A stretch of DNA of 64,000 bases from Elusimicrobiota bacterium. GTDB taxonomy: Bacteria > Elusimicrobiota > Elusimicrobia > UBA1565 > UBA9628. Under the pieces are notes generated by a model. That model was not told the DNA's origin. It worked only from the letters and a program-made list of their open reading frames with translations, and searched no databases. Location of the stretch: contig JACRDN010000019.1 of NCBI GenBank assembly GCA_016218575.1, positions 332,302-396,301 on the forward strand, read 5' to 3'. Positions 4,549 to 40,122 of the stretch are shown piece after piece (within the stretch, counting starts at the first letter, position 1; each line of letters starts with the position of its first letter). A program made the position numbers and the translations under genes.

Positions 4549-4651
4549 GATCCGAATTATGGCATAGGCTAAAACCCCCCGCCGGGTCCTTGGGCCTACT
4601 TTTGCGCCGGCAAAGGGCCTAGGTCCGGTTGGGGCGAAAGGCCCAAAAAGG

Positions 4652-7252: not shown

Positions 7253-7308
7253 GACGGGGTCAAGCGAGATCTTGACCCGCGTTTGTTTACCCTCTATACT
7301 GAGAACGC

Positions 7309-8037
7309 ATGCTCGAGCTTCGTCCGGCCAAGATCAGCGACCGCTTCATCGCCTACATCCTGGACGCGGCTCCGTTTGCCTGCGGATATATCCTCCACCG
7401 AGTCCCGCTTCTCTGGCTGGGACTGTATTTCTTCTACCAATTCCTAGGCAACTTGCTGGGGGCTACCATCGGCAAGCGCCTGATGGGGCTCCAGGTGCTG
7501 AGGCGCGACGGCCAGCCCTTGGGGGTTTTTAGAGCCCTTCTGCGCGCCTTGGGCTACGGGCTGAGCACCCCCTTCTTCAATTTTGGGTTTGTCGTGGCTT
7601 TCTTCCAGCCGGAATCCCGCACTTTGCACGATATGATTTCCGGCAGCCTTGTAGTGGAGGCCCGGGCCAAGAATCAAGGCGAGGCCGGGCTCCTTTTCCT
7701 GGCGGCAGCACTCCTCATCACGGCTCTTTTCGGCGGGACGATTTACTTATACAAGACCAACCCGACCCTTTCCGACATCCTCGCGGTGGAGAAGGCCCGG
7801 GATGGCCTCAAGATCCTGGCCCGGATCGAGGAGGAGTACAAGCGCAGTCATGGGGCCTATACTTCATCTTTGAGCGATCTCGCCCAGGCCAGCGGGGACG
7901 TGGAGGAGTTCAAGGCCGCCATGTCGAAGATTTTCGACCCCAACCTGTTCCAGATACAGGCCGGGAATCGGGGCTACCGGCTCTCCGCCGCGGCCAAGGA
8001 TCGCCGAAAGACCCGCGTCACTCTCGCGGGGCCTTAA
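7309..8037 (+). CDS. RDD-family membrane protein
   Basis: The N-terminus has the spacing pattern of the RDD domain: R...YILD, two to three TM helices, and LRRDGQP...RTLHDMISGSLVV. Confidence 0.6.
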   Translation: MLELRPAKISDRFIAYILDAAPFACGYILHRVPLLWLGLYFFYQFLGNLLGATIGKRLMGLQVLRRDGQPLGVFRALLRALGYGLSTPFFNFGFVVAFFQPESRTLHDMISGSLVVEARAKNQGEAGLLFLAAALLITALFGGTIYLYKTNPTLSDILAVEKARDGLKILARIEEEYKRSHGAYTSSLSDLAQASGDVEEFKAAMSKIFDPNLFQIQAGNRGYRLSAAAKDRRKTRVTLAGP

Positions 8038-9620
8038 AACTCAGCCAAGACCCAGCTTCCGAAAACATCGAGGCGCTTGATGTTTTTGGCGCCGACAAGG
8101 CTTATCACATGGGGCGCCTCGAAGCTCCGGAAAACCACGAAGGTCCGGTGTCCGGGAGCGGGAAGGGCGCGCAAGTCGTTGTCGTCGCCGAAGCGCCCGG
8201 TGTTTTCGGGGTAGCGCTTGGCGTAGTGGAGCTCGCCTGTCCAATTGACGAGCTTATCCACGGGCCTTCTCGCGTAGAAGGGCAGGCCGTGGAGGTATAC
8301 CCCGTAGGAGTAGACCTTGTCCTCCGGCCGGGCGCGCTCCGCGACGCTTGCCGCTAAGGAGCGCGCGCTCAGGGTCTCCGCGTTGCGGAGCAACGCGAAC
8401 AGAGAGAGTCCTCCCGCCAAGAATCCCGCCAAGGCCAAGGCGAGCGCCGGCTCCGATGTCGTGGCGGACCGGAGCAATCCTATTCCCAGCGAGGCTAAAA
8501 GCAATCCCGCCAGCGCCGCGTTGAGTCCGGCTAGGCCCGGAACGCAGGCCTTGATGAAAAGTATTGCCAGGGCCGCGGCCAGGAATAGCCCTCCCAGGGC
8601 CAGGGAAAGGCGTCTTGCCCAAACTGGCAGAGGTTTTTCAAGGGCCCAGGCCGCCAGAAGAGAGAGCTGCGGGAAAACTGGAAGAATGTAGGTGGCGAGC
8701 TTCGACTTGGATGCCGAGAAGAACGCGAAGATCAGCGTGCTCCAAATCGCCAGGGCTAAGGGCGCTCGCTCCCGGCTTTTCCAGACCCGGGTCCAGCCGG
8801 CCAAGACGGGCCCAATCCAGGGCAAAAGCCCCGCCGGCAGCACCAGGAAAAAGAAATAGAAAGGGCTGTTACGGTTGTATTTCTCCGTTAGAAATCTCTG
8901 GACATGCTGTTCCAAGAAGAAAACTTTAAGAAATCCCGGATGCCGGTGCTCCATGTAAAGAAACCACGGGGCCGCGATTCCTGTGAAAAGTGCTGCGCCC
9001 CGTGGAGAAATAAGGCGTTTGCCGTGCTGCCGTAGTTCGGGGAAAAGGATGAGCAGCGCCATCGCCCATGCCGTAGGAAATATTAAGGCGACTAGACCTT
9101 TGCTTAAAAACGCCAAGGCCGCGAAAACCCAAGCCAAGGGTGCTGCCCAAGACGCGTCTGCGGGTCTGAGCAGGCACCTTAGTATCATGGCCGAGCACCA
9201 CAAGAGGAAAACCGTCAAGGGCAGGTCGGGGGTGATGTAGTGGGAGAGGAAAAAATACAAGCCGGAGCTTCCCAGGACCAGCGCGGCCATGATTCCGGTC
9301 TGAGGGGAGAAGGCCCAGGAACCTAGCCAGACCAGGCCTAGCATCCCGGCGAGCGAGAGCAGGGCCAGGGGCAGGCGCGCGCTCGCCTCCGAGACGCCGA
9401 AAACCTTGTAGGAGGCGGCCCCCAGCCAATACCAAAGCGGGGGCTTTTCCACGTAGTCGAGGTAGTTGAGCCTGGGGGTGGCCCAGTCCCCGGACTCGGC
9501 CATCTCGCGTGGGATCTCGGCGTAGCGCGCGTCGTCTACCTCGACAAGAGGGTGGCTTAAGCTCCAAAAAGGGGAGCTCAAGGCGAGCACCAGCAAGACC
9601 CAGAGGGAGCGCGGGATCAA
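8034..9620 (-). CDS. GT-C glycosyltransferase, ArnT/PMT-like (GT39/GT83 family)
   Basis: The N-terminal motif DDARYAEIPREM...GDWATPRLNYLDYVEKPPL is the hallmark of ArnT/PMT-type lipid-linked sugar transferases, and the rest is polytopic. Its start overlaps the upstream stop by 4 bp. Confidence 0.75.
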   Translation of the reverse strand: MIPRSLWVLLVLALSSPFWSLSHPLVEVDDARYAEIPREMAESGDWATPRLNYLDYVEKPPLWYWLGAASYKVFGVSEASARLPLALLSLAGMLGLVWLGSWAFSPQTGIMAALVLGSSGLYFFLSHYITPDLPLTVFLLWCSAMILRCLLRPADASWAAPLAWVFAALAFLSKGLVALIFPTAWAMALLILFPELRQHGKRLISPRGAALFTGIAAPWFLYMEHRHPGFLKVFFLEQHVQRFLTEKYNRNSPFYFFFLVLPAGLLPWIGPVLAGWTRVWKSRERAPLALAIWSTLIFAFFSASKSKLATYILPVFPQLSLLAAWALEKPLPVWARRLSLALGGLFLAAALAILFIKACVPGLAGLNAALAGLLLASLGIGLLRSATTSEPALALALAGFLAGGLSLFALLRNAETLSARSLAASVAERARPEDKVYSYGVYLHGLPFYARRPVDKLVNWTGELHYAKRYPENTGRFGDDNDLRALPAPGHRTFVVFRSFEAPHVISLVGAKNIKRLDVFGSWVLAEF

Positions 9621-10648
9621 ATCTTGAGCACGACCTTGCCGAAGTGCTTTTTCTCGGCCAGGTATTCATGGGCCCGCCGAGCCTCTTCCAATGGGAAGAC
9701 GCGGTCAATCACGGGGATGAGCTTCTTCTCCCCCACCAGGCGCGCCACCTCCCGCATCTCGCGCGAATTGCCCATGGTGGAGCCGAGGATCTGGAGCTGG
9801 CGGCCGAAAATATAGCGCAGATCCAAAGTGACGCCGTGTCCGCTCGTGGCCCCGCAGGTGACGAGCCGACCTCCGTTCTTGAGGCTCTTGAGCGCGGCCT
9901 CGAAAACGGCCGGGCCCACGTGCTCGAAGGCGATGTCGGCCCTTCGCCCCTCGGTGAGCCTGATGGTTTCCTTTAGGATGTCTCCCGGCGGCGAGTGGAT
10001 AACGGCCCACGCTCCCAAGGCCTTGGCGCGCGCGAGCTTCTCCTGGGAGGTCGAGACGGCGATTGCCTTAGCGCCGGCGAGCCTCGCTATCTGCACCGCG
10101 GCCACCCCCACTCCGCTTCCCGCTCCGAGCACCAGGACGTATTGGCCGGGGCCGCAGCCGCCCACGGTCATGAGCATGCGCCAGGCCGTGAGAAAGGTGA
10201 GGGGATAGGCCGCGCCTTCTTCAAAGCTGAGGCTCTCGGGCAGGGGCAAAAGGGCCTGCTCGGGGACGCTCAGCAGCTCCGCGTAGCCCCCCGGCCCCGC
10301 TTGCGCGCCGATGATCCCGTACTGGGAGCATAAATTCTCTTCTCCGGCCAGGCAGCGGGGGCATTTAAGGCAGGAGCGCCCAGGGTTTACCGAAACCCTT
10401 TGTCCCACGCGGGCCTCGCGGATTGCCGGCCCCAAGGCGACGATTTCCCCCGAGACGTCGCAGCCGAGAATATGCGGCGGCTTGATTTTGTAAGCCGGGA
10501 TGCCGTCGCGCACCCAAAGGTCCAAATGGTTCAAGGCGCAGGCCCGGACTCTGAGCAGGACTTCTCCCGCGCCCGGCTCGGGGTCGGGAACCTCGGCCGC
10601 CTTTAGGACCTCGGGCCCCCCGAAGCTCTCCAGTACCATGGCTCGCAT
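9617..10648 (-). CDS. Zn-dependent alcohol dehydrogenase / quinone oxidoreductase (MDR superfamily)
   Basis: It has GCDVSGEIVALG, CxxCxxC (CLKCPRCLAGEENLC), a Rossmann motif LVLGAGSGVG and a typical MDR C-terminus. Confidence 0.8.
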   Translation of the reverse strand: MRAMVLESFGGPEVLKAAEVPDPEPGAGEVLLRVRACALNHLDLWVRDGIPAYKIKPPHILGCDVSGEIVALGPAIREARVGQRVSVNPGRSCLKCPRCLAGEENLCSQYGIIGAQAGPGGYAELLSVPEQALLPLPESLSFEEGAAYPLTFLTAWRMLMTVGGCGPGQYVLVLGAGSGVGVAAVQIARLAGAKAIAVSTSQEKLARAKALGAWAVIHSPPGDILKETIRLTEGRRADIAFEHVGPAVFEAALKSLKNGGRLVTCGATSGHGVTLDLRYIFGRQLQILGSTMGNSREMREVARLVGEKKLIPVIDRVFPLEEARRAHEYLAEKKHFGKVVLKI

Positions 10649-10705
10649 GGGGGCAGTATATAAAATTCAGGCAATTCGGTGACTGTCACCAAATTACGAC
10701 GACTA

Positions 10706-11641
10706 CTACTCGCCGAATTTTTCCTTGAGGAGACGCAGGAACTTGTCGCGCTCGGATTCGCCGCCGCTGGGAAGGAAGGAGCCTAATTGCCGGGCCATGA
10801 CGGCCATCTGGGCGCGCAGTTGGGCCGCGGCCGAGGCTTCCTGGATATACTTCCGAAGTTCTTGGGAGCGCTGCTCCAAGGCCTTGAGGAGCTCCGCCCT
10901 CTCGGCTTGCAGGGAAGCGATGACTCGCTCTTGGGAAGAGGAGTGCTCGGCCGGGGACTGGGAGAGCTCTCTGGCTTCGGCCTTGAATTCCTTCAGGACT
11001 GCGGTTTGTTCGGCCATGCGGCTTTCGAGTCGAGAGAGAGTTTGGCCGAGGCCGGCCTTAAATTCTTCAAATTTCCGCGCGAGACTCGCCAGTTCCGATC
11101 CCAGATCCAGCTTGTCCTGGAGGGATCCCCGTTCCTTGGCCAAGGCCATGGCCCCGGCGATCTCGGCCTTGAGCGCGGCCTGCTCCTGCGCCAGAGTGGC
11201 CTGGGCGGCGCTCGCGGCCTGGGATTGGGCCTCCCTCTGGCTCAAGGATTCTTTTATTAAGGAGAGCCAGCTTTGGTGCATCTCGTCCAGGCGACGCTCC
11301 AAAGCGTCCACGCGCCCCCGGGCGTGGGCCTTGGTCTCCTCGCTTTCCCTCTCCAGTTTCTCGCGCCTGAGCTGGTCGGTGAGGGACTTGAGATGGGTTT
11401 CGACCTCTTGGCGTATGGCGTCCTGCTGTTTGAGAAGGTTTTGGGCCGACTGGGCGCGCTCGCGCTCCACCGCCAGCTCCCCCTCCAGGGCCTCCAAGCG
11501 CCTTTCCAGGAAGGACATCATCGGGGTCAAGGGCACGTAGGGAGGCTGGGGCGAGATGAGTTCGGCCGGAGGCGGGAGGGGAGGTTGCGATCGAGGTGGT
11601 GCCGGGATCTGGGGCTCGTCGCTGGGGTTGGACATGGTCAT
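10706..11641 (-). CDS. Proline-rich N-terminus plus long coiled-coil protein (hypothetical)
   Basis: The N-terminus is PQIPAPPRSQPPLPPPAELISPQPPYVPL, followed by about 250 aa of heptad-like, E/R/A/L/Q-rich sequence. Its start overlaps the upstream barrel gene by 4 bp. The antisense ORFs in this region have nonsense composition. Confidence 0.6.
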   Translation of the reverse strand: MTMSNPSDEPQIPAPPRSQPPLPPPAELISPQPPYVPLTPMMSFLERRLEALEGELAVERERAQSAQNLLKQQDAIRQEVETHLKSLTDQLRREKLERESEETKAHARGRVDALERRLDEMHQSWLSLIKESLSQREAQSQAASAAQATLAQEQAALKAEIAGAMALAKERGSLQDKLDLGSELASLARKFEEFKAGLGQTLSRLESRMAEQTAVLKEFKAEARELSQSPAEHSSSQERVIASLQAERAELLKALEQRSQELRKYIQEASAAAQLRAQMAVMARQLGSFLPSGGESERDKFLRLLKEKFGE

Positions 11642-12618
11642 CTCTCGCGGTTGCGCCGGGAGGTCTTCGCCGGCAGATTGAAGCTGATCGAAAATCTGTG
11701 AATCTGGTCTCCCAGGATTCCGAAGGGAGAGAAGGCATAATCGAAGCTCCAGTCCCCCACCGAGACGCCCATGCCCGCGCTGAACGTGGTGGCAAACCCC
11801 AGGCTCTGCATGGTGAGGGTGTTGAGCCCTCCCCGCACGGCGGCCTTGATGTTGCGGTCCACCTCTAGCTTGTATTCCATGCCCAAGGCCGCGTGCGGGG
11901 TATTATTGGCCGGCATGATCCCTTCGAGGGAAAGAGTGAGCGCGTTGTTGGGATGGACGGCCGTTCCCAGGCGCGCCCGGAAGGGCAGGGTGTCTCGTAC
12001 CTGGTCGAATTTCTGGCCCTGGCCCAGGTTCTGGGCCACGAAGGCCACGTCGTAGATGTAGCGGCCGCTGTAGAAGCGGCTCAATATCCCTATGTCCCCG
12101 CCGAAGCCGTCTCCGTGCAGGAGGTAGTCCGAGTGGATCCAGCGCCCGGCCACTCCCATGGAAATGTCCATCTCGCTGTCGGAGAGGTCGTAGATGGCCT
12201 GCCCCCAGCCGCCCTCGATCACGTAGTCGCGGGGATGGAATGTTCCCACGGTCCTGCCTGCTAGATCCGTGTGGTCTATCTCGCCGATGTCTCGGTGGCG
12301 CAGGCCCGCGGCGAGCACCCCGTTGTCGGAGACCCTCTTGGCCACGGCCGCGGATTGGTAGGTGATGTCCTGCACGTAGCGCGAGTACATGAAGGTGGCC
12401 GAGATCCTGGGGATTTTGGCCAGGCCCGCCGGGTTCCAATACAGGGAGTAGGCGTCGTCTGTCACGGCCGAGTAGGCGCCGCCCATGGCGATGCCGCGCG
12501 CGCCCTGGTCGAAGAGGAGGAACTCAGAGCCGGTGGTTCCCACCGCGGCCTTGCTGAAATCCGAGGCGCGCGCCACCGGCGGTAAAGCCATCAGCAGGGC
12601 GAGGGCGGCAGTTCTCAC
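11638..12618 (-). CDS. Outer-membrane beta-barrel, FadL/PorV-like (UPF0164-type)
   Basis: It has a signal peptide, then GARGIAMGGAYSAVTDDAYSLYWNPAGLA, alternating beta-strand periodicity, and a C-terminal RFSISFNL ending in an aromatic/Leu beta-signal. It sits 4 bp-overlapped directly downstream of the CTD-bearing giant gene. Confidence 0.65.
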   Translation of the reverse strand: MRTAALALLMALPPVARASDFSKAAVGTTGSEFLLFDQGARGIAMGGAYSAVTDDAYSLYWNPAGLAKIPRISATFMYSRYVQDITYQSAAVAKRVSDNGVLAAGLRHRDIGEIDHTDLAGRTVGTFHPRDYVIEGGWGQAIYDLSDSEMDISMGVAGRWIHSDYLLHGDGFGGDIGILSRFYSGRYIYDVAFVAQNLGQGQKFDQVRDTLPFRARLGTAVHPNNALTLSLEGIMPANNTPHAALGMEYKLEVDRNIKAAVRGGLNTLTMQSLGFATTFSAGMGVSVGDWSFDYAFSPFGILGDQIHRFSISFNLPAKTSRRNRER

Positions 12619-15600
12619 CGGAGCACCACCACTTTATGGACCTTTTTTTGCCCGTTGAACTCCAAAGTCGCCAAGTACACCCCGCTCGCCGCCGGCCGGC
12701 CGTAGAGATTCACTCCGCCCCAGATCATGAGTCCAGAGCCGTTGGCTTGGCCCTCAAAGACCAATTCCCCCCTCAAAGTGAACACCCGCACCCTGGCCCC
12801 GGCCGGCATCTGCGAGAAGGTGACGTAGCCATGGCCTCGGTTCGGCATGAAGGGGTTCGGGAAAACCCGAGCCTGCTCCACCGAGGTGGAGGGGCTCACC
12901 CGCACCACCTGGAATTGGGAGAAATGGTTGAGCTGGACCGTCATGCGGTGGTTGACGCTGTCCACCACGGTCTGCAGGGGCACGCAGGCTCCGGAGTCAT
13001 CCACCCGCATGAACGTGGCTTCGCCGGCTGGGATGGGCACCGCCGCGAGCTCCGCATCGGCGAAGGAGAAGGTCAGGAAAACCGGGCCGACCGGCTGCAT
13101 CGTGGGCCGTGGGGTGATGGAAAGCCCGATATTGGCCCCGCCGGCTCCGCAGGGAGAGGGCGGGACCGTGAAAGAGGAGACGGTCACGAAGACGTCCGAG
13201 GCAAAGGACTTGGCCGGCACCGTGAGCTTGACGTAGCGGGAGTTGCCGAGGGTTCCTTCGATTATGTTGTTCTGCGTCGTGAGGACCGTGCCACCCAGGG
13301 ACCCGGCCGGGACTCCCCCGTTGAAGGGTGCCGTGGTGACGGTGTTGGAGAAGGCGCTTGCCAGGCCGCTTAAGTTCTGGGCCGCCACGCGTATGGAGAT
13401 CGTCGTGCCGGTCAGGAGGCTCGAGAGGACCAAGGCGGTCTGGTTCGACTGCTTGGAGAAGGCGAGCGGCGTCGAGACGTGCGTCACGAAGTTATCCGTG
13501 GAATAGGTCACCTGGTAGGTGGCCGAGGAGGAGTTGTTGTTGGAGTTCCAGGAAACCGAGATGGAGGATGGCGTGGTCCCCAGGACCGTCAGGCTGGTCG
13601 GGGGATTGGCCAAGGTCGAGGTGGTGCCTAGGACGAGATAGCTGGAGGCCACGCTATCGCCATTAAGCGACCGGACCTTCACGTCGAAGGGCATGGCGGG
13701 AGAGGCCAGGTCGGCGACGCTGGCGGAGAATCCCGTCGTGGTGATGGTGCTCACCACGGCGTCTCCCGAGGAGACGATCATCTCGAAGGTGGTGCCGGCT
13801 GGGTTCTCGTTGGTGTTCCATATGCCCGTAAACGAGCCCGTGGTGACGTTCAGTATGGGCGGGCTTACGGCCAAGGGGATGGCCGACAAGGTGAAGGTGG
13901 TGGCAGAGGCCGATAAGGGCCCCTCCCCGGCCTGGGTCACCGCGCTAACGTACACGGAGCGGACCGAGTTCGTGGAGAGCCCTGTGTCTTGGAAGACGTT
14001 GGTGTTGGGGGTGGCGATCACCGCACCCGTCGTCGAATTATAGACCTTGTAGAAATTGACTCCCCCCGGATCCACCCAGCTCCACTGTATGCTCGTGGTG
14101 GTGAGCCCCGTTCCGGCCAACCCCGCCACGGGGGTCCTGGTTTGTGTGGCGACGACCACGCTGAAGTTGGAGGCGGTGCCGGCGCCGTTGAAGGATCTCA
14201 GGCGCAGATAATAGGTCGTGTTCGACTGCAGTGGAGCAAGAATTACGTTGTCCGTGGTGAGCCCCGAGAGGCTAGGCACCGGGGTCGAGAAGGAGAGCGC
14301 GAAGTTGTCCGTCGAGAGCGACACCTCGTAGATGGTCCCCTGGCTGTTGCCGTTGACGTTCCATGAGAGAAGAAGGCTTGTGGATGTTACCGAGGTCACG
14401 GCCACGCTCACGGGGACGGTCGAAAGCGTGAAGAAGGTGGCCGATGTGGTCAACGGGCCGTCGCCCGTGAGGGTGTAGGCCCCCACCAGGAGCTGGGCCG
14501 TGGCGTTGGGGGCTAGGCCCCGCTGGGTGTAGGTCGGGGTGGCCGCGCCCACGGTCGAGATGAAGACCCCGGTGGTGGCGGAGAAGACCTCGTAGCCGTC
14601 CATCGTGGTCTGGCCTTGGATGTCGGTCCAACTCCAAGTGATGGTCGTGGAGGTGATGGAAACCGTGTTGGCGGTCACGCTGGTCGGGCCCACCGTGGGC
14701 TTGGGGGGGCCGGCTTGGACGAGCACGCTGTCGGAGAATTGGGAGTTGGAGGCGGAGCGCAGGTGGTACCATCCGTAAGGAAGGAAGGTCCCGCCGGGGG
14801 AGGGCAGGGGGCTCTGCGCCGCCGAGGGCATGAGCACCGTCATGGAGGAATCTGTCTTGGTCCAGAGGTTTGGATCGGGGGTCTTGCTGTAGACCCTCGT
14901 GGACAGGTCGAGGGCGAAGCCCCCGGAGCCTTGGGAGCTCGTGCCTCCGGAACCGTCCACCGCCTGCAAAACCGCGCGAGGATGGAAATGGGAGGAGTTC
15001 CCGCTGGCGGGCCCCCCGCTCGAGGCCTCCGTGATTCCCTGGAAATTCCGCCCGCTCAAAGTGACGAAGTCCCCTCGGTTGAAGGGAGAAAGGTCCACCG
15101 CGGTGATGGTGGACTGCCTGGCGCTGGGAGGGGCCCCGAGGCTCGCGGCGTCCGGCGAGCCCGTGAAGTAGAGTCGCTCGGCGCTCGACAAGAAGGCGGC
15201 CCCGCTATAGCCTCCGATGGCGTAAAGATTCCCGTCCTTGGCCAGGCTCGTCGTGTGGTAGCCCCTGGAGGCGGACATGTTCCCGCTCACCTGCCAGGAC
15301 GAGGTCGCCACGTCGAAGGTCTCGCAGCTGTTCAAGGTGTTGCCCAAGGCCTGCGCGCCGCCCGCGATGATGACGTTGCCGTTGGGCAGCAAGGTCGCCG
15401 TGTGGCTGAAGCGCGGCGTGTTCAAGGGCCTCCCCGGGACCAAGGCCCCGGTGTCGGTCCATGTGTTGGCCACGGGATCATATATTAAGGAATAGGCGGT
15501 TTCCCCGAAGCCGTCGTTGCCCCCGGTCAAGAGGACCCGGCCGTCCATGAGCAAGGTGGCTGAGTGGGAATGCGAGCGCTTGGCGCTGCCAGCGCAGGGA

Positions 15601-18299
15601 TCTGCCGCGTTATTGAGGCAGGTGGCCATGGTCCAGGCGCCGGTGACGGGGTTGTAGATCTCATTGCGCGCGAGCACCCCGCTCGCGTTGACCCCTCCGC
15701 TCACCAGGATGCGTCCGTCCTGCAGGAGGGTGGACGTGTGCAGGGCCCGGGCCAGGTTCATGCTGCTGATGGGCCGCCAGGCCCCGGCCGTGGAGTAGTA
15801 GATCTCGGCCTCGTTATGGTAGGTCCCCCCGTTGTAGCCGCCGGTCGCCAGGACGTTCCCATCGGCCATGAGGACCGCCGCATGGTTGTCCCGGGCCGTG
15901 TTCATGGACTGGGTGGGAACCCAGATCCCGGTGGCGGGGTAGTAGATCTCGGCTCCCGCGGTGGCCCCGGTGCTCGTCGCGTTGGTGGTGAAGCCCCCAG
16001 AGACCAGGACCCGGCCGTTGGGGAGCAAGGTGGCCGTGTGAAGATCGCGGACCTCCAGCATCGGCCCGGTTGCGGAGAAGCGCGCGGTCACCGGATCGAA
16101 AAGCTCGGCCGAGCGCAAGACGTTGGGGCCGTTGGACCCGCCCGCCACCAAAATATTTCCATTGGGGAGCATGGTGGTGGTGTGGTTTCCCCTAGAGTTG
16201 GTCATGCCGGCGCTGTTGGCCGTCCAGGCTCCGAGCCTGGGGATGACGCGCGCCGATCCCCGGGGCGAGGAGGAGGTGCAGTCGGTCTGGGAGGTTTGGG
16301 AGTCGGTGCAGCTCAGTCCCCCCAGGAGGGAGATGTCTCCGCTGGGGGTGAGAGTGGCGCTATGCCCGTGCTTCTGGCTGCCGAACCCCTGCACCGTGAA
16401 GCTCCAGGCGTTGCTTTGGGGGTTGAATTTGGTCAGATCGCTGAACATCATGCTGCGTATGACCACCGTGGCGACGTCCACCGTGAAATTGGTTTGGCTT
16501 AGGTTCACGCGGCTGGCCACGAACTTGAGCGTGCCGGAAAGCCCCGTGACCACCCGGCCGGCCACGTTGAAGGGAGTGACCTGGTTCGTGGTCGTGCTCA
16601 CGTCCACCGTACCCCTCAAATTGATGAAGGATGCGTTGAAGGAGAACTCGGCTCCCCCCGCCCCGTCGTCCACCACCGTGGGAGCCCCCGGGATCTGGGT
16701 GAAGCCGTCGGTGAAGGAGAGGGTCGCGATGTTGGTGATGGAGAGGCTGCCCGCGGTGAGGCGCAGGCTGCCGCTGCTGATGGCGGCTCCCAGGAAAATC
16801 TTCGAAATCGGGACGGTCAAGGTCCCGGTCAGTATGCTCGCGGTGAGTATCGTCCCGGGCGAGTTGTCCACGGTCATGGGGGAAGCGGTGAACCCCACCG
16901 TGCTGTTGGCGATCAAGGTGAAATTGTCGGGGCTTACGGTGACGTCTGGGGTGAAATACTGGCCCTGCATCGGAGACAGCGAGACGGTGCGGCTGATCTG
17001 ACCGCAGGTCCCGGCTACAGGATCGCAGAAGACCCTGGTTCCGGCGAGACTCGCGCGCAGGCCCACCGCCGGGTCCGCGGTGCCGGCCCGGAGAATGGCC
17101 TGGCCCGTGACTCCCGAGTAGGTAAAGTTGACGATGGGCGAGGACATAAGGACCTCTCCCTGTTCTATGATCCCGGTGACCGGGACGGAGAGCGGGAAGT
17201 TGAGGTTGACGGCAAGATACCCGCCTGTCACGTTCATGGTGGACAGCACGTTGCCGAAGGAGCCGGTGACCGAGGAGCCGTCCACCAAGGTCGCCGAGGC
17301 GTTGACGAAGGTGGTGGTGATGTTCCCGAGGCCTCCGAACATGGCCAACTGTCCGTCGTTTTGAAGCGTCATGCTGTGGCCGAGGCTGCGCACCAGCATG
17401 GACGGGGCGGGCACCATGGAATCGGACACGGGGTCGTAGAGCTCCGTGGTTTGGAGGATTCCCTTGTTGGCCAGGGAGTCCCTGCCGTTGAAGCCCCCGG
17501 TGATGAGGACCTTGCCGTTGCCCATGAGGTTGGCGGTGTGATAGGCCCTTTGCTGGATGAGGTTCTTTCCGGCCTTGAAAGTCCCGGAAGTGGGATTGTA
17601 TATCTCGGTCGTGACGAGGTAGGGGTAGGTGGCGTTGTTGGGATCCCAGCCGCCGGCGAGGAAAACCCTGCCGTCGGGAAGCAAGGTCGAGGTGTGGAGG
17701 GACCGGGCCGAGGCCAGGGAGCCCGTGGCGGAGAAGGAGCCGAAGGCTCCCCCGCAGGTAAACGAGGGGTTGGTGGGCGCGTTGTAGAGCTCGCAGGAGC
17801 TGTTCATGGCGCCAGAGCCTCTTTGTCCGCCGCAGACCAGGACCTTGCCGGTCTTGAGCAAGGTCGCGGTGTGGTTGAACCTTCCGTTGACCTCGGTCAT
17901 GGCCATGGAGGCGGACCAGCAGTTCTGGGACGGGTCGAAGACCACGGCGTCGGTGCGTACCCCCCCGGAGTTCACGCCGCCGACGATCAGGACCTGGCCC
18001 GTGGGAAGCATGGTCGCGGTGTGGGAGGCCCGGGCGACCGCCATGGCGGTCGCGTCCAAAAAGTCGTTTTGGCGCTCCAGGGAGATCTGGACGCCGGTCA
18101 AGGCCGTGGTGAGGTCGCCCGGGGCCGTCATTCCGCCCACGACGAGGATGTTGCCGTCGGGCAATAAAGTCGAGGTGTGGGCGAATCTAGAGGTAAACGC
18201 GACGGCGCCGGCCCTGGAGGCGCTCAATCCCAATGAAAAGCCCAAGCCGAGGGCCGTCCATAAAAATGCCGAGCGCCAAGTCGTCGGGCGAAGATGCAT
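12615..18299 (-). CDS. Giant secreted/surface protein (1894 aa): two Kelch beta-propellers, Fn3-like repeats and a T9SS-type C-terminal sorting domain
   Basis: It has a signal peptide (MHLRPTTWRSAFLWTALGLGFSLGLSASRAGA). There are at least 12 Kelch blades with the recurring HTxTLLPxGxVLVxGG pattern, in two clusters. At least five Fn3-like repeats follow (TSLLLSWNVNG...YEV, IQWSWVDPGGVNFYKVY, ISVSWNSNNN...YQVTY). The C-terminus VFPNPF...GVYLATLEFNGQKKVHKVVVLR matches the Por-secretion-tail / CTD type-A pattern. Confidence 0.85.
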   Translation of the reverse strand: MHLRPTTWRSAFLWTALGLGFSLGLSASRAGAVAFTSRFAHTSTLLPDGNILVVGGMTAPGDLTTALTGVQISLERQNDFLDATAMAVARASHTATMLPTGQVLIVGGVNSGGVRTDAVVFDPSQNCWSASMAMTEVNGRFNHTATLLKTGKVLVCGGQRGSGAMNSSCELYNAPTNPSFTCGGAFGSFSATGSLASARSLHTSTLLPDGRVFLAGGWDPNNATYPYLVTTEIYNPTSGTFKAGKNLIQQRAYHTANLMGNGKVLITGGFNGRDSLANKGILQTTELYDPVSDSMVPAPSMLVRSLGHSMTLQNDGQLAMFGGLGNITTTFVNASATLVDGSSVTGSFGNVLSTMNVTGGYLAVNLNFPLSVPVTGIIEQGEVLMSSPIVNFTYSGVTGQAILRAGTADPAVGLRASLAGTRVFCDPVAGTCGQISRTVSLSPMQGQYFTPDVTVSPDNFTLIANSTVGFTASPMTVDNSPGTILTASILTGTLTVPISKIFLGAAISSGSLRLTAGSLSITNIATLSFTDGFTQIPGAPTVVDDGAGGAEFSFNASFINLRGTVDVSTTTNQVTPFNVAGRVVTGLSGTLKFVASRVNLSQTNFTVDVATVVIRSMMFSDLTKFNPQSNAWSFTVQGFGSQKHGHSATLTPSGDISLLGGLSCTDSQTSQTDCTSSSPRGSARVIPRLGAWTANSAGMTNSRGNHTTTMLPNGNILVAGGSNGPNVLRSAELFDPVTARFSATGPMLEVRDLHTATLLPNGRVLVSGGFTTNATSTGATAGAEIYYPATGIWVPTQSMNTARDNHAAVLMADGNVLATGGYNGGTYHNEAEIYYSTAGAWRPISSMNLARALHTSTLLQDGRILVSGGVNASGVLARNEIYNPVTGAWTMATCLNNAADPCAGSAKRSHSHSATLLMDGRVLLTGGNDGFGETAYSLIYDPVANTWTDTGALVPGRPLNTPRFSHTATLLPNGNVIIAGGAQALGNTLNSCETFDVATSSWQVSGNMSASRGYHTTSLAKDGNLYAIGGYSGAAFLSSAERLYFTGSPDAASLGAPPSARQSTITAVDLSPFNRGDFVTLSGRNFQGITEASSGGPASGNSSHFHPRAVLQAVDGSGGTSSQGSGGFALDLSTRVYSKTPDPNLWTKTDSSMTVLMPSAAQSPLPSPGGTFLPYGWYHLRSASNSQFSDSVLVQAGPPKPTVGPTSVTANTVSITSTTITWSWTDIQGQTTMDGYEVFSATTGVFISTVGAATPTYTQRGLAPNATAQLLVGAYTLTGDGPLTTSATFFTLSTVPVSVAVTSVTSTSLLLSWNVNGNSQGTIYEVSLSTDNFALSFSTPVPSLSGLTTDNVILAPLQSNTTYYLRLRSFNGAGTASNFSVVVATQTRTPVAGLAGTGLTTTSIQWSWVDPGGVNFYKVYNSTTGAVIATPNTNVFQDTGLSTNSVRSVYVSAVTQAGEGPLSASATTFTLSAIPLAVSPPILNVTTGSFTGIWNTNENPAGTTFEMIVSSGDAVVSTITTTGFSASVADLASPAMPFDVKVRSLNGDSVASSYLVLGTTSTLANPPTSLTVLGTTPSSISVSWNSNNNSSSATYQVTYSTDNFVTHVSTPLAFSKQSNQTALVLSSLLTGTTISIRVAAQNLSGLASAFSNTVTTAPFNGGVPAGSLGGTVLTTQNNIIEGTLGNSRYVKLTVPAKSFASDVFVTVSSFTVPPSPCGAGGANIGLSITPRPTMQPVGPVFLTFSFADAELAAVPIPAGEATFMRVDDSGACVPLQTVVDSVNHRMTVQLNHFSQFQVVRVSPSTSVEQARVFPNPFMPNRGHGYVTFSQMPAGARVRVFTLRGELVFEGQANGSGLMIWGGVNLYGRPAASGVYLATLEFNGQKKVHKVVVLR

Positions 18300-18366: not shown

Positions 18367-19038
18367 TTACTGCGCGACGGTCACGGCCGAGGCGTTGCGC
18401 TCGGTGCGGGCGTTTTCGGGATCGAGGGTCTTGATGCCGTCCACGAGATAGAGGTAGCGGTAGGTGGCGGGAGTCAAATAGAGGGTCAGGGTCCACATCC
18501 CGTCGCTTTCCTGGGTCATGGCCTTGCGGCCGCCGCGAATGAAGCCTCCCCAGAGCTCCACGTTCTTGGCTCCGGGAGCCTTGATCTGGAATTTGACGGC
18601 CTTGGCCTTGACCTTGGCCGATGGCTGGGGCGCAGCCAGTGCTGCTGCTGGGATGGGAGCGACTGCCCCGGCTGGAGTGGTCGCTTTGGCCGCCTCCTGG
18701 AGCTTGGGCGCCTCGCGGGGCTTGGGCGCTTCCTGCACGAAAGCGGGATTGTTGGCGGGCTTGGCCGGGGCTGCCTGCGTGGGCTCCGCGGGCTTTGCCG
18801 CGGGCGGGGCGGGCTCTTCAGCGAGCTTGGGCGCCGGCGGGGCCGGCTTGGCCCTATGGACCTGTACTGGAGGCGGCGGGAGTTGGGGAGGAGACTGCCA
18901 ATGCTGGTAGAGCTTGGCCGCCAGGGCTCCGCCGAATATGATGACAAGAAAAGCGTCCAGGACCAAAAGCACGGCCCACAGCTTTTGATTGCGGGACGAA
19001 TCTCCTTCGCTTTCGCCTGCGCCGAGGCCCGATGTCAT
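18367..19038 (-). CDS. Membrane-anchored Pro/Ala-rich protein with a C-terminal CBM48/AMPK-beta-like (E-set) domain
   Basis: It has a single TM (LWAVLLVLDAFLVIIFGGALAA), a (P/A/K)-rich linker, and a C-terminal KFQIKAPGAKNVELWGGF...DGMWTLTLYL...YRYLYLVDG that resembles a glycogen-binding/isoamylase N-terminal beta-sandwich. Confidence 0.55.
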   Translation of the reverse strand: MTSGLGAGESEGDSSRNQKLWAVLLVLDAFLVIIFGGALAAKLYQHWQSPPQLPPPPVQVHRAKPAPPAPKLAEEPAPPAAKPAEPTQAAPAKPANNPAFVQEAPKPREAPKLQEAAKATTPAGAVAPIPAAALAAPQPSAKVKAKAVKFQIKAPGAKNVELWGGFIRGGRKAMTQESDGMWTLTLYLTPATYRYLYLVDGIKTLDPENARTERNASAVTVAQ

Positions 19039-19050
19039 CTGGCAATGATT

Positions 19051-19578
19051 CTAGCGCAATCCTCCAACCCTGTCAACCAAGCCTTGGGCGCGCAAAACCA
19101 GCTCCGCGGCCTCCCTGACCGCGGCCTCTCCCCCTCGGCTGCGGGTGACCCAGTGGGCCTTGGCCTTGACCTCGGGCCTGGCGTTGGGCACGGCCACGGC
19201 CAGGCCCGCGCGCTCCAAGACCGGGATGTCGGGCCAATCATCCCCCATGTAGAGGACTTCCTCGGCCTTGACCCCGGCCTCCTTCAGGATTTGATCAAAA
19301 ACATTCAGCTTGTCGAGGCGGCCTTGATGGATGTAGGAGACCTTGACGAGCTTCAGGCGTTCCTCCATGCCCCGGGAATTTCGCCCGCTGATGACCCCGG
19401 TCTTGATCCCGCATTGGGCGAGCCAGCCGAGAGCGATGCTGTCCTGGGCGTTGACCCCCTTGAGCTCCACCAGATTCCCGGAGGTGTCCACGAAGTGGTA
19501 GATGAGGCCGTCGGTGAGCACTCCGTCGATGTCGAGCAGGAAGACCTTGACGCGCCGGGCCCGCTCCTTGATCGTCAA
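19051..19578 (-). CDS. kdsC: 3-deoxy-D-manno-octulosonate-8-phosphate phosphatase (HAD family)
   Basis: FLLDIDGVLTDG (DxDGVLTDG motif), GVISGR, MGDDWPDIPV. Size (175 aa) and motifs fit KdsC. Confidence 0.85.
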   Translation of the reverse strand: MTIKERARRVKVFLLDIDGVLTDGLIYHFVDTSGNLVELKGVNAQDSIALGWLAQCGIKTGVISGRNSRGMEERLKLVKVSYIHQGRLDKLNVFDQILKEAGVKAEEVLYMGDDWPDIPVLERAGLAVAVPNARPEVKAKAHWVTRSRGGEAAVREAAELVLRAQGLVDRVGGLR

Positions 19579-22370
19579 GTCGGCCTCGTTTTAATTTTCA
19601 AGGCGTTGGCGACGCTGGAGAGGTCCCCCGCCGCGATGGACTCGAGCGCCAGGAGCAGGACGCGGCGACCGGCTTTCTTCAGGGCTTCGAAGTCGCCCCG
19701 AGCCTGGGCGCTGATCAAGGTCCCGAAGTGATAGGGACGGCCGGGAATTTCCAGGGCCGCTGGCCTAGCTTCGCAAATCATGATAAACACGCCCTTGGAG
19801 GGTCCCCCTTTATGGAGTTGGCCCGTGGAATGCAGATAACGGGGGCCATGCTCGAGGCAGACCGGGGCCGAGGTGAGAGCGCTGATTTGAGCGCGCAGCC
19901 CCTCCAGACTCCGGCGTTGGGATTCGGGATCGAGGAAGGAGAGAAGAGCCGCGTAATCCCCGGAGTTCAGGCGGCCCAAGTGCTTGGCGAGGACCTCGGA
20001 TAGGGGAGGGGACGAATCCGTCCACGCCTCGGCCAGGGGCGCGTCCGCCCACGCCGAAACCCCGCCCCAGCGCCAAGTCGGGCTCTCCTTGGGCAGAGCC
20101 CCCTTTTTCAGGGAGCTTAAAAGTTTCCGGGTCTGGTCCTTTGCGGACTGCACATCGGGTTGGTCGAAAGGATTGACCCCCATCAAATGCCCCGCCGCGG
20201 CCGTGGCGATTTCCCAAAGGAGGAACTGCGCGCCCAAATCGTAGACGTCGGCCATTTTGAGGGTGAGGACCGGTCTTCCCGCTTTCTCCAGGGCGAGCAT
20301 TTTCCCTTGAAGGGGTAGGTCCCCGGCCGCCGCGTCGAGGCTCACGTGGACGAAGAGGCGGTCGCCGCCGTAGGAGTCGTTCTTAGCCGGGGCTTCGCCC
20401 ACCACCGGCACGATTCCCTGGCCCTCCTTGCCGGTGGACTCCGCGATCAGTTGCTCCAGCCACAGGCCGAAAGGCTCGAGGCCGGGGGGCAGGCACAAAG
20501 TGAGCTTGTCCTGCCCCTTGGCGGCGTGGGCCGCCAAAGCCGCTCCCAGCCTTAGGGCGAGATTTTCCTCGGTGGCCTTGGCGGGAGAGAGCTTCTTGGC
20601 CAAATCTCGGGCCCGGCCGAGGAGCCTTTCAATGTCGATGCCCATGAGGGCCGCCGGCACCAGCCCGAAATAAGAAAGGGCGGAGAATCTTCCCCCCACA
20701 TCCGGGGGATTGAGGCAGGTCTTGCGAAAGCGCAGCTTGACGGCGAGATTCTCAAGGGAGGTGCCCGGGTCCGTGATCGCCATGAATTGGCGGCCGGCCC
20801 TGTCTCCGGAAAGCTTGGAGACCCGGTCGTAGAAATAGTCGAGCAGACAGCCGGGCTCGATGGTGGAGCCGGACTTGCTCGAGATCACGAAGAGCGCGCG
20901 CTTGAGGTTGAGCCGCGACTCAAGCCCCGCCACGGCCTTGGGGTGCGTGGAGTCCAGTATCTCCAGCTTCGGAAATCCTTTTCCCCGGGGAAAAGCGGTC
21001 CTGAAAACTTCGCAGACCAGGCTCGACCCCCCCATTCCCAGGACCACCGCGGTCTCGAATCCCTCCTTGACGATCTCGGCGGCGCAATTGCGGATGGGAC
21101 CTAGGGCCCCCGACATGCTGTCTGGCAAGGTGAGCCAGCCCAAGGAGTTCCGAATTGCCTTCTGATGGGCCTTGTCCGTTTTCCAAAGCGTGGGATCCTT
21201 TTGCCAGAGGCGGCTTGAGAACTGGGCCTTGGCCAGGCTGTCGAGGCCAGCACCCTCCGCCTGGACCTCTGCCTTAAGGAGCTCCCGCTTGGCCGAGATC
21301 TGGCCCATCAAGGTTTCGAAGGATTTCGAGAAGGCCTTGAGGCCCTCCTCCTCGAGATCTCGGCAGATCTGGGCCATATCCACCCCGAGCTTGCCGAGCC
21401 CCTCCCATTGCTCCCGGGCCTCGAGCGGGTCTTCCTCGAGACTGGGGCGGCAGGCGCCATGGTCGTAGAACGCCTCCAAGGTGGCCGGGGGCATGGTGTT
21501 GACGGTGTCCGCCCCGATGAGCTCCTCGACGTAGAGGACGTCCCGGTAATTGGGATTCTTGGTTCCCGTGGAGGCCCAGAGGAGGCGCTGGACCTGGGCG
21601 CCGGCTCGCTTCAAGACGGCGAAGCGTTCGGATGCGATTTGGCGCTTGTAGATCTGGTAGGCGAGTTTGGCGTTGGCGATGGCGGCCTTGCCCGAGAGAG
21701 CCCGTGCCTCGGGGGTCCCCAGTGCTGCAAGCCGCTTGTCCGCGGCGGTGTCGATGCGGCTGACGAAAAAACTCGCCACAGAGGCGACTTTGGATAGGTC
21801 TTTCTTCTGCGCAAGCCTCTTCTCGAGCCCGCGCAGATAGGCCGCGAGGGTCTTGGCGTAGCGCTCCTGGGAGAAAAGCAAGGTGATGTTCACCGGCACC
21901 CCGTCGGCGATGGCTTTCTCTACGGCGAGAAGCCCTTCCTCGGTGCCTGGGATCTTGATCATGACGTTGGGGCGGCCCACCAGGCGGTGCAGGCGCAGGG
22001 CTTCCTTGTGGCTGGCCTCGGCCTGCCGCGCCAAATGGGGAGCAAGCTCGATGCTGACGTAGCCGTCTTGTCCCTCGCTCTCCTCGTAGACCGGCTTGAA
22101 CAGGTCGGCGGCCGCGCGGATGTCCTCCACGGCCATGGTCTCGAACATCTCCTGGGGCGAGCGCGTCCCGCGGGTCATTTCCTGGATGGCAGGGTCGTAG
22201 TCGTTGGAGGAGCCGATGGCCTTCTCGAAAATCGTCGGATTGGAGGTGACGCCCTTGAGGCCCCAAAGCTCCGCCTTGCGCGCGAGTTCTCCAGAAACAA
22301 GCAGCCCCCGGCTGATATTGTCGTACCAGACGCTCACCCCGAAGCGCCCCAATTCCCGTAAAGGATTCAT
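19575..22370 (-). CDS. Bifunctional transaldolase / glucose-6-phosphate isomerase
   Basis: The N-terminal roughly 370 aa are transaldolase (SVWYDNISR...VTSNPTIFEKAI). The C-terminal half is PGI (...GGRFSALS..., sugar-isomerase fold). The 931-aa length fits known tal-pgi fusions. Its stop overlaps the kdsC start by 4 bp. Confidence 0.85.
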   Translation of the reverse strand: MNPLRELGRFGVSVWYDNISRGLLVSGELARKAELWGLKGVTSNPTIFEKAIGSSNDYDPAIQEMTRGTRSPQEMFETMAVEDIRAAADLFKPVYEESEGQDGYVSIELAPHLARQAEASHKEALRLHRLVGRPNVMIKIPGTEEGLLAVEKAIADGVPVNITLLFSQERYAKTLAAYLRGLEKRLAQKKDLSKVASVASFFVSRIDTAADKRLAALGTPEARALSGKAAIANAKLAYQIYKRQIASERFAVLKRAGAQVQRLLWASTGTKNPNYRDVLYVEELIGADTVNTMPPATLEAFYDHGACRPSLEEDPLEAREQWEGLGKLGVDMAQICRDLEEEGLKAFSKSFETLMGQISAKRELLKAEVQAEGAGLDSLAKAQFSSRLWQKDPTLWKTDKAHQKAIRNSLGWLTLPDSMSGALGPIRNCAAEIVKEGFETAVVLGMGGSSLVCEVFRTAFPRGKGFPKLEILDSTHPKAVAGLESRLNLKRALFVISSKSGSTIEPGCLLDYFYDRVSKLSGDRAGRQFMAITDPGTSLENLAVKLRFRKTCLNPPDVGGRFSALSYFGLVPAALMGIDIERLLGRARDLAKKLSPAKATEENLALRLGAALAAHAAKGQDKLTLCLPPGLEPFGLWLEQLIAESTGKEGQGIVPVVGEAPAKNDSYGGDRLFVHVSLDAAAGDLPLQGKMLALEKAGRPVLTLKMADVYDLGAQFLLWEIATAAAGHLMGVNPFDQPDVQSAKDQTRKLLSSLKKGALPKESPTWRWGGVSAWADAPLAEAWTDSSPPLSEVLAKHLGRLNSGDYAALLSFLDPESQRRSLEGLRAQISALTSAPVCLEHGPRYLHSTGQLHKGGPSKGVFIMICEARPAALEIPGRPYHFGTLISAQARGDFEALKKAGRRVLLLALESIAAGDLSSVANALKIKTRPT

Positions 22371-26331: not shown

Positions 26332-27096
26332 TCATAAACGCCCGAGCTCCTTCTTGAGCTGATTGGGGAGCTGTTGGATGATAGCCCAATGGCTCTTAGG
26401 CAGGAAAGCCTTGAGTTCGTTGTAGAGGAACTTCTTGTCGACCGCCTCAAGCCTTTCTAAGACCTGCTTGCGCCGCGCCGCGATCGACTTCCTTTCCCCC
26501 ATCGGCTTGCGCAGGATGAAGTAGAGGTCGTAGAAGTCCCGTGGCTTGGCGCGCGAGAGAAGTGCGTCGACCTTCTCGTCAACGAGCAATTTCTCCGGCA
26601 GGCCGTAGACGTTGTAGTTCGGCACGAGGCCCGACGTAACCACGGAGAGCTCTCCCTTAAGGGGCTTCTGGCGCGTGGAGGCCTGCAGGAGGATCTCGAT
26701 CTCCCACGGTCCCATGGGGCCGCGCACGATGCCGAAGTAGCCGCCGCTCGTGGGCTTGGACTCGACGAGCGCCAGGCCTGAGATCTCCTGGGCGACGCGC
26801 TCGGCCGTCCGCTCGATCACGGCTTGCGTCTTGTGAAACGGCATGGCCGCGGTGAAGTCGAGGTCCTCGGAGAAGCGCGGGCTCTGGTAGACGATTCGCA
26901 GGGAGGTCCCGCCCTTGAACATAAGGCCGTCCGAGGCTGGGTCCGCGTACAGATGGGAGAGGAATACGTTCTGCGCGTACTCGCGCGCGACATTTTCATC
27001 GGTCGTGTGGAATTTTACCGCGAGCTGCTTGATCTCATCTGCCGATAGCATGGCCCACCCAGGAGAGGAAGGTCTTAGGCTTGAATAGGCGCGCAT
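26332..27096 (-). CDS. AbiEii/AbiGii-family nucleotidyltransferase toxin (DUF1814, type IV TA)
   Basis: LMFKGGTSL...RFSEDLDF is the NTase signature of AbiEii. A possible shorter start lies at 27051 (MLSADEIK). It is paired with the upstream AbiEi. Confidence 0.75.
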   Translation of the reverse strand: MRAYSSLRPSSPGWAMLSADEIKQLAVKFHTTDENVAREYAQNVFLSHLYADPASDGLMFKGGTSLRIVYQSPRFSEDLDFTAAMPFHKTQAVIERTAERVAQEISGLALVESKPTSGGYFGIVRGPMGPWEIEILLQASTRQKPLKGELSVVTSGLVPNYNVYGLPEKLLVDEKVDALLSRAKPRDFYDLYFILRKPMGERKSIAARRKQVLERLEAVDKKFLYNELKAFLPKSHWAIIQQLPNQLKKELGRL

Positions 27097-29671: not shown

Positions 29672-29693
29672 CACAAGTTTAGAACAGAAAAAT

Positions 29694-40112: not shown

Positions 40113-40122
40113 TATTCGAGGA

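Follow-up and report, generated by a model that had tools for sequence, protein, structure and literature searches.

How a very large surface protein is exported, and then held on the cell surface, in a bacterium outside Bacteroidota is the question raised by a locus in a 64,000-nucleotide (nt) stretch of Elusimicrobiota DNA (assembly GCA_016218575.1, contig JACRDN010000019.1, positions 332,302 to 396,301), referred to here as the window. On its minus strand, an open reading frame (ORF) that opens with ATG and spans 12615..18299, stop codon included, encodes a surface protein of 1,894 amino acids (aa), called the giant below, which currently carries only the name 'fibronectin type III domain-containing protein' in its deposited form. 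The original prediction had described it as a candidate adhesin or enzyme scaffold with two Kelch propellers and Fn3 arrays, ending in a type IX secretion system (T9SS) C-terminal sorting domain (CTD). About an even chance is given here to a more specific reading, in which the giant would be a conserved, non-catalytic adhesin or coat protein that has its CTD held by a dedicated PorV/PorQ-like barrel, cleaves itself and can be released. Its domain order runs from a signal peptide through a propeller with an insert, a propeller with a cap and five Fn3 domains to a beta domain ending in a His-Phe-Ser (HFS) motif and, finally, the CTD.

The C-terminal sorting domain and the adjacent barrel gene

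The CTD occupies residues 1812-1894 (12618..12866, minus strand) and was recognized by profile scans. Taken as an isolated domain, the last 94 aa reach the curated cut-off of the T9SS type A sorting domain model TIGR04183 (29.1 bits, cut-off 23), which marks the giant as a type-A-like cargo. PorZ gives the highest score, through its C-terminal domain (53 bits); the PorZ equivalog NF052228 is matched at 47-53 bits against a cut-off of 260, over profile positions 664-756, which comprise the CTD only. The giant is thus not a PorZ, though it may work like PorZ in barrel anchoring. The domain is kept in all 120 homologues retrieved, and 25 of 25 diverse family CTDs match both TIGR04183 and the PorZ C-terminus at E<=0.01. 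A CTD-profile search of a set of 5.8 billion proteins matched fragments of <=167 aa only. Some Elusimicrobiota fragments have already been named 'T9SS type A sorting domain-containing protein' by the NCBI pipeline.

Directly downstream lies the gene for an outer-membrane barrel of the PorV/PorQ family (11638..12618, minus strand; 326 aa, including a short signal peptide). Its first codon, GTG, runs into the TGA that ends the giant, an overlap of 4 nt (GTGA, in the context cgGTGAgaa), and it stands 3' of the giant in four of four loci that were fetched by homologue (L001-L004). By this arrangement the barrel gene is translationally coupled to the giant. Its product scores 157.2 bits against the PorV/PorQ family model NF033709 (cut-off 90), over profile positions 1-326 of 326, and 43.9 bits against Pfam PorV (cut-off 27); the best PDB match is F. 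johnsoniae PorV (6h3i_F). None of the more specific equivalogs is reached: PorQ (NF033711), the closest, gives 97.3 bits against 220, PorV (NF033710) 75.6 against 250, and PorV2 51.7 against 325. On these profile scores the barrel gene is classified as a distinct PorV/PorQ subfamily.

The barrel also ends in an uncommon way. A near-invariant basic tail of ~13 aa (NLPAKxSRRxRER; 11638-11680 on the minus strand of the window, and the L001-L004 orthologues) comes after a last beta strand that ends in an aromatic residue (HRFSISF/W/Y). The beta-signal of outer-membrane barrels normally lies at the very C-terminus, and a basic tail in that place is unusual.

The suggestion that CTD cargo outside Bacteroidota would be noteworthy in itself applies here. 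All named homologues of the giant and of the barrel gene come from metagenome-assembled genomes (MAGs) of Elusimicrobia or Elusimicrobiota, many from groundwater, and NCBI taxonomy places Elusimicrobiota directly under Pseudomonadati, outside the Fibrobacterota-Chlorobiota-Bacteroidota (FCB) group. A literature search for papers linking T9SS, CTDs or PorV to Elusimicrobia found no relevant paper. With the sorting tail, the probable self-cleaving domain and the partner gene, the export-and-anchor scheme seems to exist well outside the phylum in which it is known.

A pre-CTD domain with a putative autoproteolysis site

Between the last Fn3 domain and the CTD lies a beta domain of ~150 aa (residues 1656-1805; 12885..13334, minus strand), which profile comparisons describe as GAIN-B/MAIN/ZU5-like. 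Near its end, ~20 aa ahead of the FPNPF that opens the CTD, is the sequence LNHFSQFQ. The motif His1792-Phe1793-Ser1794 within it (12918..12926, minus strand) is a putative autoproteolysis site, at which the cut is predicted to fall between F and S. Autoproteolysis in GAIN, ZU5 and Nup98-type domains takes place at H-hydrophobic-S/T, and the giant has the motif where MAIN and GAIN-B domains carry it, near the C-terminal end of the domain. The overall layout of a signal peptide, adhesion or enzymatic domains, an autoproteolytic domain and an anchor is likewise present.

When giants and paralogous cargos are aligned, the column of the His is invariant and that of the Ser/Thr nearly so. H-(F/L/I/M)-(S/T) occurs in 115 of 120 giant orthologues, and in three of the five exceptions both His and Ser are replaced (NDFG). 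That the two residues are conserved together and lost together argues for a catalytic over a purely structural role, and the domain is probably self-cleaving. The NDFG sequences form a sub-clade of shorter giants of ~1,700 aa (P0105, P0110, P0120; loci L042, L047, L052). Should the motif be catalytic, they would be variants that naturally do not cleave.

The domain is not confined to giants. A profile built on it and run against 1.84 billion proteins gave 1,900 cluster representatives with E<=1e-3, and in most of the 150 representatives listed it ends ~90 aa from the C-terminus. Among those listed, 117 were new; a CTD is present in 111, and the H-hydrophobic-S/T motif in 107 of these 111. The passengers of nine new representatives that were scanned include Kelch/Fn3, FG-GAP, PKD, subtilase, an NHL propeller and a LamG lectin domain. 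The pre-CTD domain and the CTD are thus a module that is joined to varied passengers.

Recurrence of the cargo-barrel cassette

The distribution of the pair was surveyed by scanning one genome per species with a PorV-like alignment, and 80 loci were examined. Orthologues of the barrel (~50, at 46-64% identity) are found in Elusimicrobiota MAGs, and paralogues at 28-38% identity occur in Elusimicrobiota as well; five MAGs (STA_59, SKS1.bin53, BP5.bin24, SO_2017_LW4_15 and I2_bin-066) hold an orthologue together with a paralogue. Further relatives of the barrel were found in Lindowbacteria, Zixibacteria, Gemmatimonadota, Aerophobetes, KSB1, Krumholzibacteria, Marinimicrobia and Ignavibacteria.

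CTD-ending ORFs near the barrels were detected with a hidden Markov model (HMM) built from the CTDs of the giants. In 70 of the 80 loci, the barrel gene has a same-strand ORF of this kind upstream at a distance of up to ~300 nt, and in 57 of these the distance is within 60 nt. Two further loci, both from Elusimicrobia, are inverted, with the PorV-like gene first and the CTD cargo directly after it (L068 and L069), and L079, which at first seems to break the pattern, has a CTD that is divergent. Two cassettes occur in several MAGs, and the cassette is also present in two complete genomes, CP096137.1 (L051) and OY969767.1 (L068).

Some of these loci have features of their own. The cargo of L068 matches Fn3, Big_1, PKD and CHU_C/Por_Secre_tail and is followed by a 1,030-aa TPR protein; neither it nor the cargo of L069 has an HxS motif, and one of these two loci is on a complete chromosome. 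L065, from an Elusimicrobiota MAG, carries two CTD cargos of ~1,080 aa (3612-6836 and 11442-14726), both with HLS, the first just upstream of the PorV-like gene and the second ~3.7 kb downstream, which suggests a local duplication of cargo genes.

At the locus in the window, the cargo and barrel genes belong to a predicted unit of four genes on the minus strand. The upstream accessory gene (18367..19038) encodes 223 aa with an N-terminal transmembrane (TM) helix, a Pro/Ala-rich linker and a C-terminal CBM48/AMPK1_CBM-like beta-sandwich, for which Pfam AMPK1_CBM gives 25.1 bits, slightly below the cut-off of 26.8. The gene downstream of the barrel (10706..11641), whose ATG overlaps the stop of the barrel gene, has a product of 311 aa that is Pro-rich at its N-terminus and contains a long coiled coil; the protein lacks a signal peptide and has only weak SMC-type matches, and its positional orthologues in L001-L004 are 494-547 aa long. 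Two sites known by consensus match flank the unit, a sigma-70-like promoter match (TTGACA-17-TAGAAT, 11 of 12 positions; 19048..19076) and a terminator-like hairpin directly 3' of the coiled-coil gene (10671..10697).

The four-gene order is kept in L001, L003 and L004 and also in the rearranged L002. The 223-aa gene itself is found in the same position in L001, L003 and L004, and the 221-aa protein upstream in L002 gave no Pfam match. By tblastn, the 223-aa gene was recovered at 38 loci, all of them orthologous giant loci. Both accessory genes occur only with giant orthologues and are absent from the paralogous cassettes, which rules them out as general cassette parts; the minimal unit is accordingly the CTD cargo with its own PorV/Q-like barrel.

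Architecture of the passenger

A motif scan with H[ST]xT[LM]L..G.[IV]L[IV].GG found 14 Kelch blades in two groups. The first comprises six blades (residues 41-323, with starts at 41, 93, 143, 202, 254 and 308) and the second eight (residues 646-1030, with starts at 646, 706, 754, 806, 854, 912, 966 and 1015). Together with structure predictions (mean pLDDT, the predicted local distance difference test, of 92.3 for residues 30-700 and 81.9 for residues 625-1260), the scan places blades 1-6 of propeller 1 at residues 33-324 (17328..18203, minus strand, as are all segments of the giant). They are followed by a beta-rich domain of ~300 aa (residues 325-630; 16410..17327; model pLDDT ~90), which lies between blades 6 and 7. 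Blade 7 (residues 631-690; 16230..16409) would then close propeller 1, and blades 8-14 form propeller 2 (residues 691-1042; 15174..16229). A cap domain comes next (residues 1043-1198; 14706..15173), equivalent to galactose oxidase domain 3. The giant is accordingly modelled as two seven-bladed Kelch propellers, the first with an inserted beta domain and the second with a galactose-oxidase-type cap. In the inserted domain the strands are long; it carries a conserved GLGNITTTY motif as well as a Cys425/Cys432 pair, and the region is kept across the family.

Five Fn3 domains (residues 1199-1655; 13335..14705) complete the passenger. Their boundaries were set by start motifs, at ~1199, 1295, 1390, 1474 and 1566, and Pfam fn3 matches in four stretches (1.6e-21). 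The giant also matches Kelch_4 (2.9e-61) and Kelch_1 (1.2e-47). Scanned against Pfam, neither the insert nor the cap nor the pre-CTD segment gave a match, and a PDB sequence search with the whole giant gave generic Kelch matches only. Of what had been expected, the two Kelch propellers are borne out by the Pfam matches, the motif scan and the models, and so is the presence of an Fn3 array. The blades that had been put at 12 or more number 14, in two seven-bladed propellers. The Fn3 repeats were said to flank the propellers; all five stand solely C-terminal to them, and the ~300 aa between the two blade groups are not Fn3.

A seven-bladed Kelch propeller with a cap is also the fold of copper-radical oxidases (AA5), which raises the possibility that the giant is a surface-displayed enzyme of the galactose or glyoxal oxidase family. 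Both propellers have the galactose oxidase fold. To compare the ligands, the galactose oxidase residues were mapped onto the blade motif. In the alignment, the columns for the copper ligands and the Cys hold Y19/F18, N/F, L, S and T, and the cap-hairpin His column holds F24/H21. The positions equivalent to Tyr272 and Tyr495 are thus Y/F, N, L or S, and that of Cys228 is Thr. None of the ligand columns (two Tyr, two His and the Cys of the Tyr-Cys cofactor) is conserved, and the GlxA equivalog NF052501 gives only 90 bits against a cut-off of 800. The likeness to galactose oxidase, GlxA and AA5 is therefore one of fold and not of catalysis, and a copper-radical oxidase is very improbable here. 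Because the copper ligands are not conserved, the option of an enzyme scaffold is weakened as well.

Another feature of the blades is a His that opens the inner strand. It is kept in all 14 blades, in 38-45 of 46 sequences for most of them and in 28 of 46 for blade 7. In galactose oxidase, the same position in one blade is presumably the copper ligand His496. Each propeller of the giant would have an axial ring of ~seven His, which could be a metal site or a structural feature.

Gene model and integrity of the assembly

The protein in the NCBI record P0001, encoded on a 551-kb contig, is 100% identical to the giant, is 1,870 aa long and starts at a TTG at codon 25, a choice that removes the signal peptide. 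Homologue N-termini and a gene call on a Logan assembly favour the upstream ATG (18225-18299, minus strand). With that start, residues 1-32 (MHLRPTTWRSAFLWTALGLGFSLGLSASRAGA, followed by V; 18204..18299, minus strand) form a predicted Sec signal peptide. By inspection it has a charged N-region, a hydrophobic core and AGA before the V at the predicted junction, and homologues have comparable leaders.

For a protein with so many repeats, it also has to be considered whether the repeats are an assembly artefact or the ORF a chimera. In their DNA, the blade copies were 61-77% identical over <=71 nt, and there was no tandem array beyond a trivial 19-nt repeat. Window positions 1-18037 are matched without gaps and at 100% identity by the Logan assembly of run SRR12113407, the gene call of which is 1,894 aa; the overlapping Logan contigs looked up to extend the window were short. 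At least 120 homologues were found; most have this architecture and, at 36-56% identity, cover >=96% of the query, and more than 100 are full-length orthologues. These three lines (diverged copies, an identical independent assembly and many collinear orthologues) rule out a collapse of the repeats; they contained nothing in favour of an artefact or chimera, the probability of which is practically negligible. The 1,894-aa ORF with its repeats, for which such a check had been advised, is real.

Proposed mechanism and alternative explanations

In the preferred reading, the giant would be exported by Sec and would cross the outer membrane by a type-IX-like route. Its CTD would stay in place on the cognate PorV/Q-like barrel; in Porphyromonas, PorQ and PorV hold PorZ and PorU, respectively, by CTDs that are uncleaved, a precedent for a retained CTD (PMC5562754, PMC5121618). 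The pre-CTD domain would cut itself between F1793 and S1794 through an N-O acyl shift, as in GAIN/MAIN domains. The passenger of ~190 kDa would then be held non-covalently by the last beta strand, which would remain on the CTD, and could come off under force or when a ligand binds. Binding or coat formation, and not catalysis, would be the role of the propellers and Fn3 domains, since the Tyr, Cys and His ligand positions of galactose oxidase are not conserved.

Several observations weigh against this reading. T9SS has been reported as restricted to Bacteroidetes/Bacteroidota (PMC4793230), and no T9SS core gene besides the PorV-like one was found among the Pfam/NCBIfam-scanned ORFs of the 64-kb window. 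The sequence covered comprised this window and fetched loci of 5-26 kb. For the whole giant, TIGR04183 gives 20.4 bits, under its cut-off of 23, and Pfam Por_Secre_tail (PF18962, 14.5 bits) and CHU_C (17.5 bits) are both under their cut-off of 27. The predicted sorting signal is thus upheld by TIGR04183 on the isolated domain and by the PorZ CTD, and it is not upheld by the Pfam models or by TIGR04183 on the whole protein. The relationship of the pre-CTD domain to GAIN/MAIN/ZU5 is weak but consistent. The top match in a PDB profile search, at E=0.097 and not significant alone, is to the ADGRB2 GAIN domain and places HFS on the HLS of the GPCR (G-protein-coupled receptor) proteolysis site (GPS); hhalign against the GAIN-B subdomain of ADGRB2 gives 82% probability with HFS again on HLS, for a pair that was picked after the PDB match. 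Pfam ZU5 is reached by one of 21 members, a paralogous cargo (27.9 bits, cut-off 21).

The same tail could belong to an ordinary T9SS type A cargo. A full T9SS (SprA/Sov, PorKLMN, PorU) would then be encoded elsewhere in the genome, PorU would remove the CTD with linkage to lipopolysaccharide (LPS), the PorV-like barrel would be a general shuttle and HFS would be structural only. The TIGR04183 match, the NCBI names of Elusimicrobiota fragments and the place of the barrel in the PorV/PorQ family all agree with this, as do the many different passengers that share the tail, which is what a general secretion signal would lead one to expect. Yet each barrel paralogue adjoins its own cargo, with two such pairs in single MAGs, unlike the single shared PorV of Bacteroidota. 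The barrel also falls far under the PorV and PorQ equivalog cut-offs, a T9SS core gene was not found among the window ORFs scanned, and the joint conservation and loss of His and Ser/Thr points to a catalytic role. The HFS domain, for its part, suggests a mode of attachment that differs from the PorU/LPS route and would be non-covalent. An ordinary type A cargo is on balance rather unlikely. A scheme in which these genomes would have no SprA-type translocon has also been considered. The PorV/Q-like barrel itself would pass and anchor its cognate CTD protein in a two-partner or autotransporter manner, in the case of the giant perhaps helped by the Pro-rich membrane-anchored protein and the coiled-coil one. 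In its favour are the strict one-to-one, translationally coupled cargo-barrel pairs, the predicted four-gene unit bounded by promoter-like and terminator-like sites, the TonB-like layout of the upstream protein (TM helix, Pro-rich linker, beta-sandwich) and a lineage outside the phyla with reported T9SS. The accessory genes, being absent from paralogous cassettes, cannot be parts of a general mechanism, and no FadL-like, PorV-type barrel is known to translocate large proteins (SprA-PorV structures), which counts against the scheme. It is considered distinctly unlikely. The broader proposal that a passenger, a GAIN/MAIN-like domain, a type-A-like CTD and an own PorV/Q-like barrel make up an autonomous diderm system for surface display and release, without the Bacteroidota T9SS translocon and widespread in Elusimicrobiota and neighbouring candidate phyla, is unlikely at present.

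Relation to known systems

In type B systems such as SprB-SprF, the barrel gene adjoins the cargo gene, as it does here. Unlike these Bacteroidota pairs, the giant has a type-A-like tail (TIGR04183), its barrel belongs to the PorV/PorQ and not the PorP/SprF family, and the phylum is another. Type B CTD cargo is described as associating with a PorP-like outer-membrane protein that is its surface anchor (PMC9143113). Classical T9SS type A cargos, such as gingipains and Tannerella S-layer proteins, share with the giant a Sec signal peptide as well as, at the C-terminus, a beta-sandwich of ~80 aa that matches TIGR04183. They are Bacteroidota proteins, however, and the giant differs from them in its dedicated adjacent barrel, in the autoproteolysis-type domain before its CTD and in its lineage.

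A closer parallel is offered by PorZ of Porphyromonas gingivalis, which consists of two beta-propellers and a CTD, is secreted with its CTD intact and is anchored by PorQ, a barrel of the PorV family (PMC5121618, PMC5562754). The CTD of the giant has its best family match in the PorZ CTD, and the closest equivalog of its barrel is PorQ. The differences lie in the Kelch type of the propellers, the length of 1,894 aa, the HFS domain before the CTD and the Elusimicrobiota host; the PorZ model is matched over the CTD only, and the cargo and barrel genes are adjacent and overlapping here, unlike those of PorZ and PorQ. PorZ-PorQ sits in the T9SS attachment complex, and a role in LPS delivery is not in evidence for the giant.

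A recent preprint by Brogan & Rudner (May 2026) showed experimentally that microbial GAIN-like domains, termed MAIN, cleave at HFS and leave fragments that remain associated; in Bacillus subtilis YfkN, HFS is cut between F and S (bioRxiv 10.64898/2026.05.12.724683). MAIN domains lie between adhesion or enzymatic domains and an anchor such as a sortase signal or an SLH domain, and the preprint makes no mention of T9SS, CTDs or Elusimicrobia (bioRxiv 10.64898/2026.05.12.724683). The giant resembles these proteins in having a signal peptide, adhesion domains, a beta domain with H-X-S/T and then an anchor. It is unlike them in that the anchor is a T9SS-type CTD with an outer-membrane barrel in a diderm, the sequence similarity is weak and cleavage is predicted only. 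A GAIN/MAIN-type self-cleaving domain combined with a type-A-like CTD and its dedicated, translationally coupled PorV/PorQ-family barrel appears to be undescribed, as does the spread of this set outside Bacteroidota.

Genomic neighbourhood

The surface-protein unit stands in a window of 60-66% G+C over most of its length, in which no other CTD gene was found among the ORFs scanned. A PMT_2/ArnT-like glycosyltransferase gene (8034-9620, minus strand) lies downstream of the cassette, and in the window and L001-L004 the distance is two to six genes. From its position, this enzyme could glycosylate the Ser/Thr-rich giant (12% Thr, 11% Ser). Just upstream of the unit is a 931-aa transaldolase-phosphoglucose isomerase fusion (19575-22370, minus strand), which shares a sugar-phosphate cluster with genes for a HAD hydrolase and with rpiB and keeps its synteny in related genomes.

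The remainder of the window includes a secreted-type Met-zincin of 866 aa (4652-7252, plus strand; DUF5117 and DUF4953), in which the family HMM found no CTD, and a large peptide-uptake cluster (38197-47859, minus strand) with two each of SBP_bac_5 binding proteins, Opp-type permeases and ATPases, as well as an OPT transporter. The region 26332-30400 may be a small integrated island. Its G+C dips to 0.55-0.60, against ~0.64, beside a tRNA-Gly(CCC) gene (27844-27917), and besides an AbiEii toxin gene (26332-27096) it contains two ORFs, of 359 and 227 aa, without a Pfam match. Four other ORFs also gave no Pfam match, namely 33126-35015 (minus strand, 629 aa), 48223-49860 (plus strand, 545 aa), 50872-52581 (minus strand, 569 aa) and 52606-53301 (minus strand, 231 aa).

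Implications

T9SS and its CTD signal are treated as a trait of Bacteroidota, or at most of the FCB group, and the locus described here is a conserved, syntenic pair of a CTD cargo and a PorV-family partner in Elusimicrobiota. The pattern of one cargo with one barrel, repeated across candidate phyla, raises the possibility that a PorV/Q-type barrel and a CTD are an older, self-standing anchoring module. The predicted self-cleaving domain would take the MAIN release domains beyond the sortase- and SLH-anchored proteins of monoderms, to diderm proteins that are anchored at the outer membrane. Elusimicrobiota are almost entirely uncultured, and for them the giant would be a conserved major surface protein and, as such, a candidate for labelling or enrichment as well as a candidate attachment factor.

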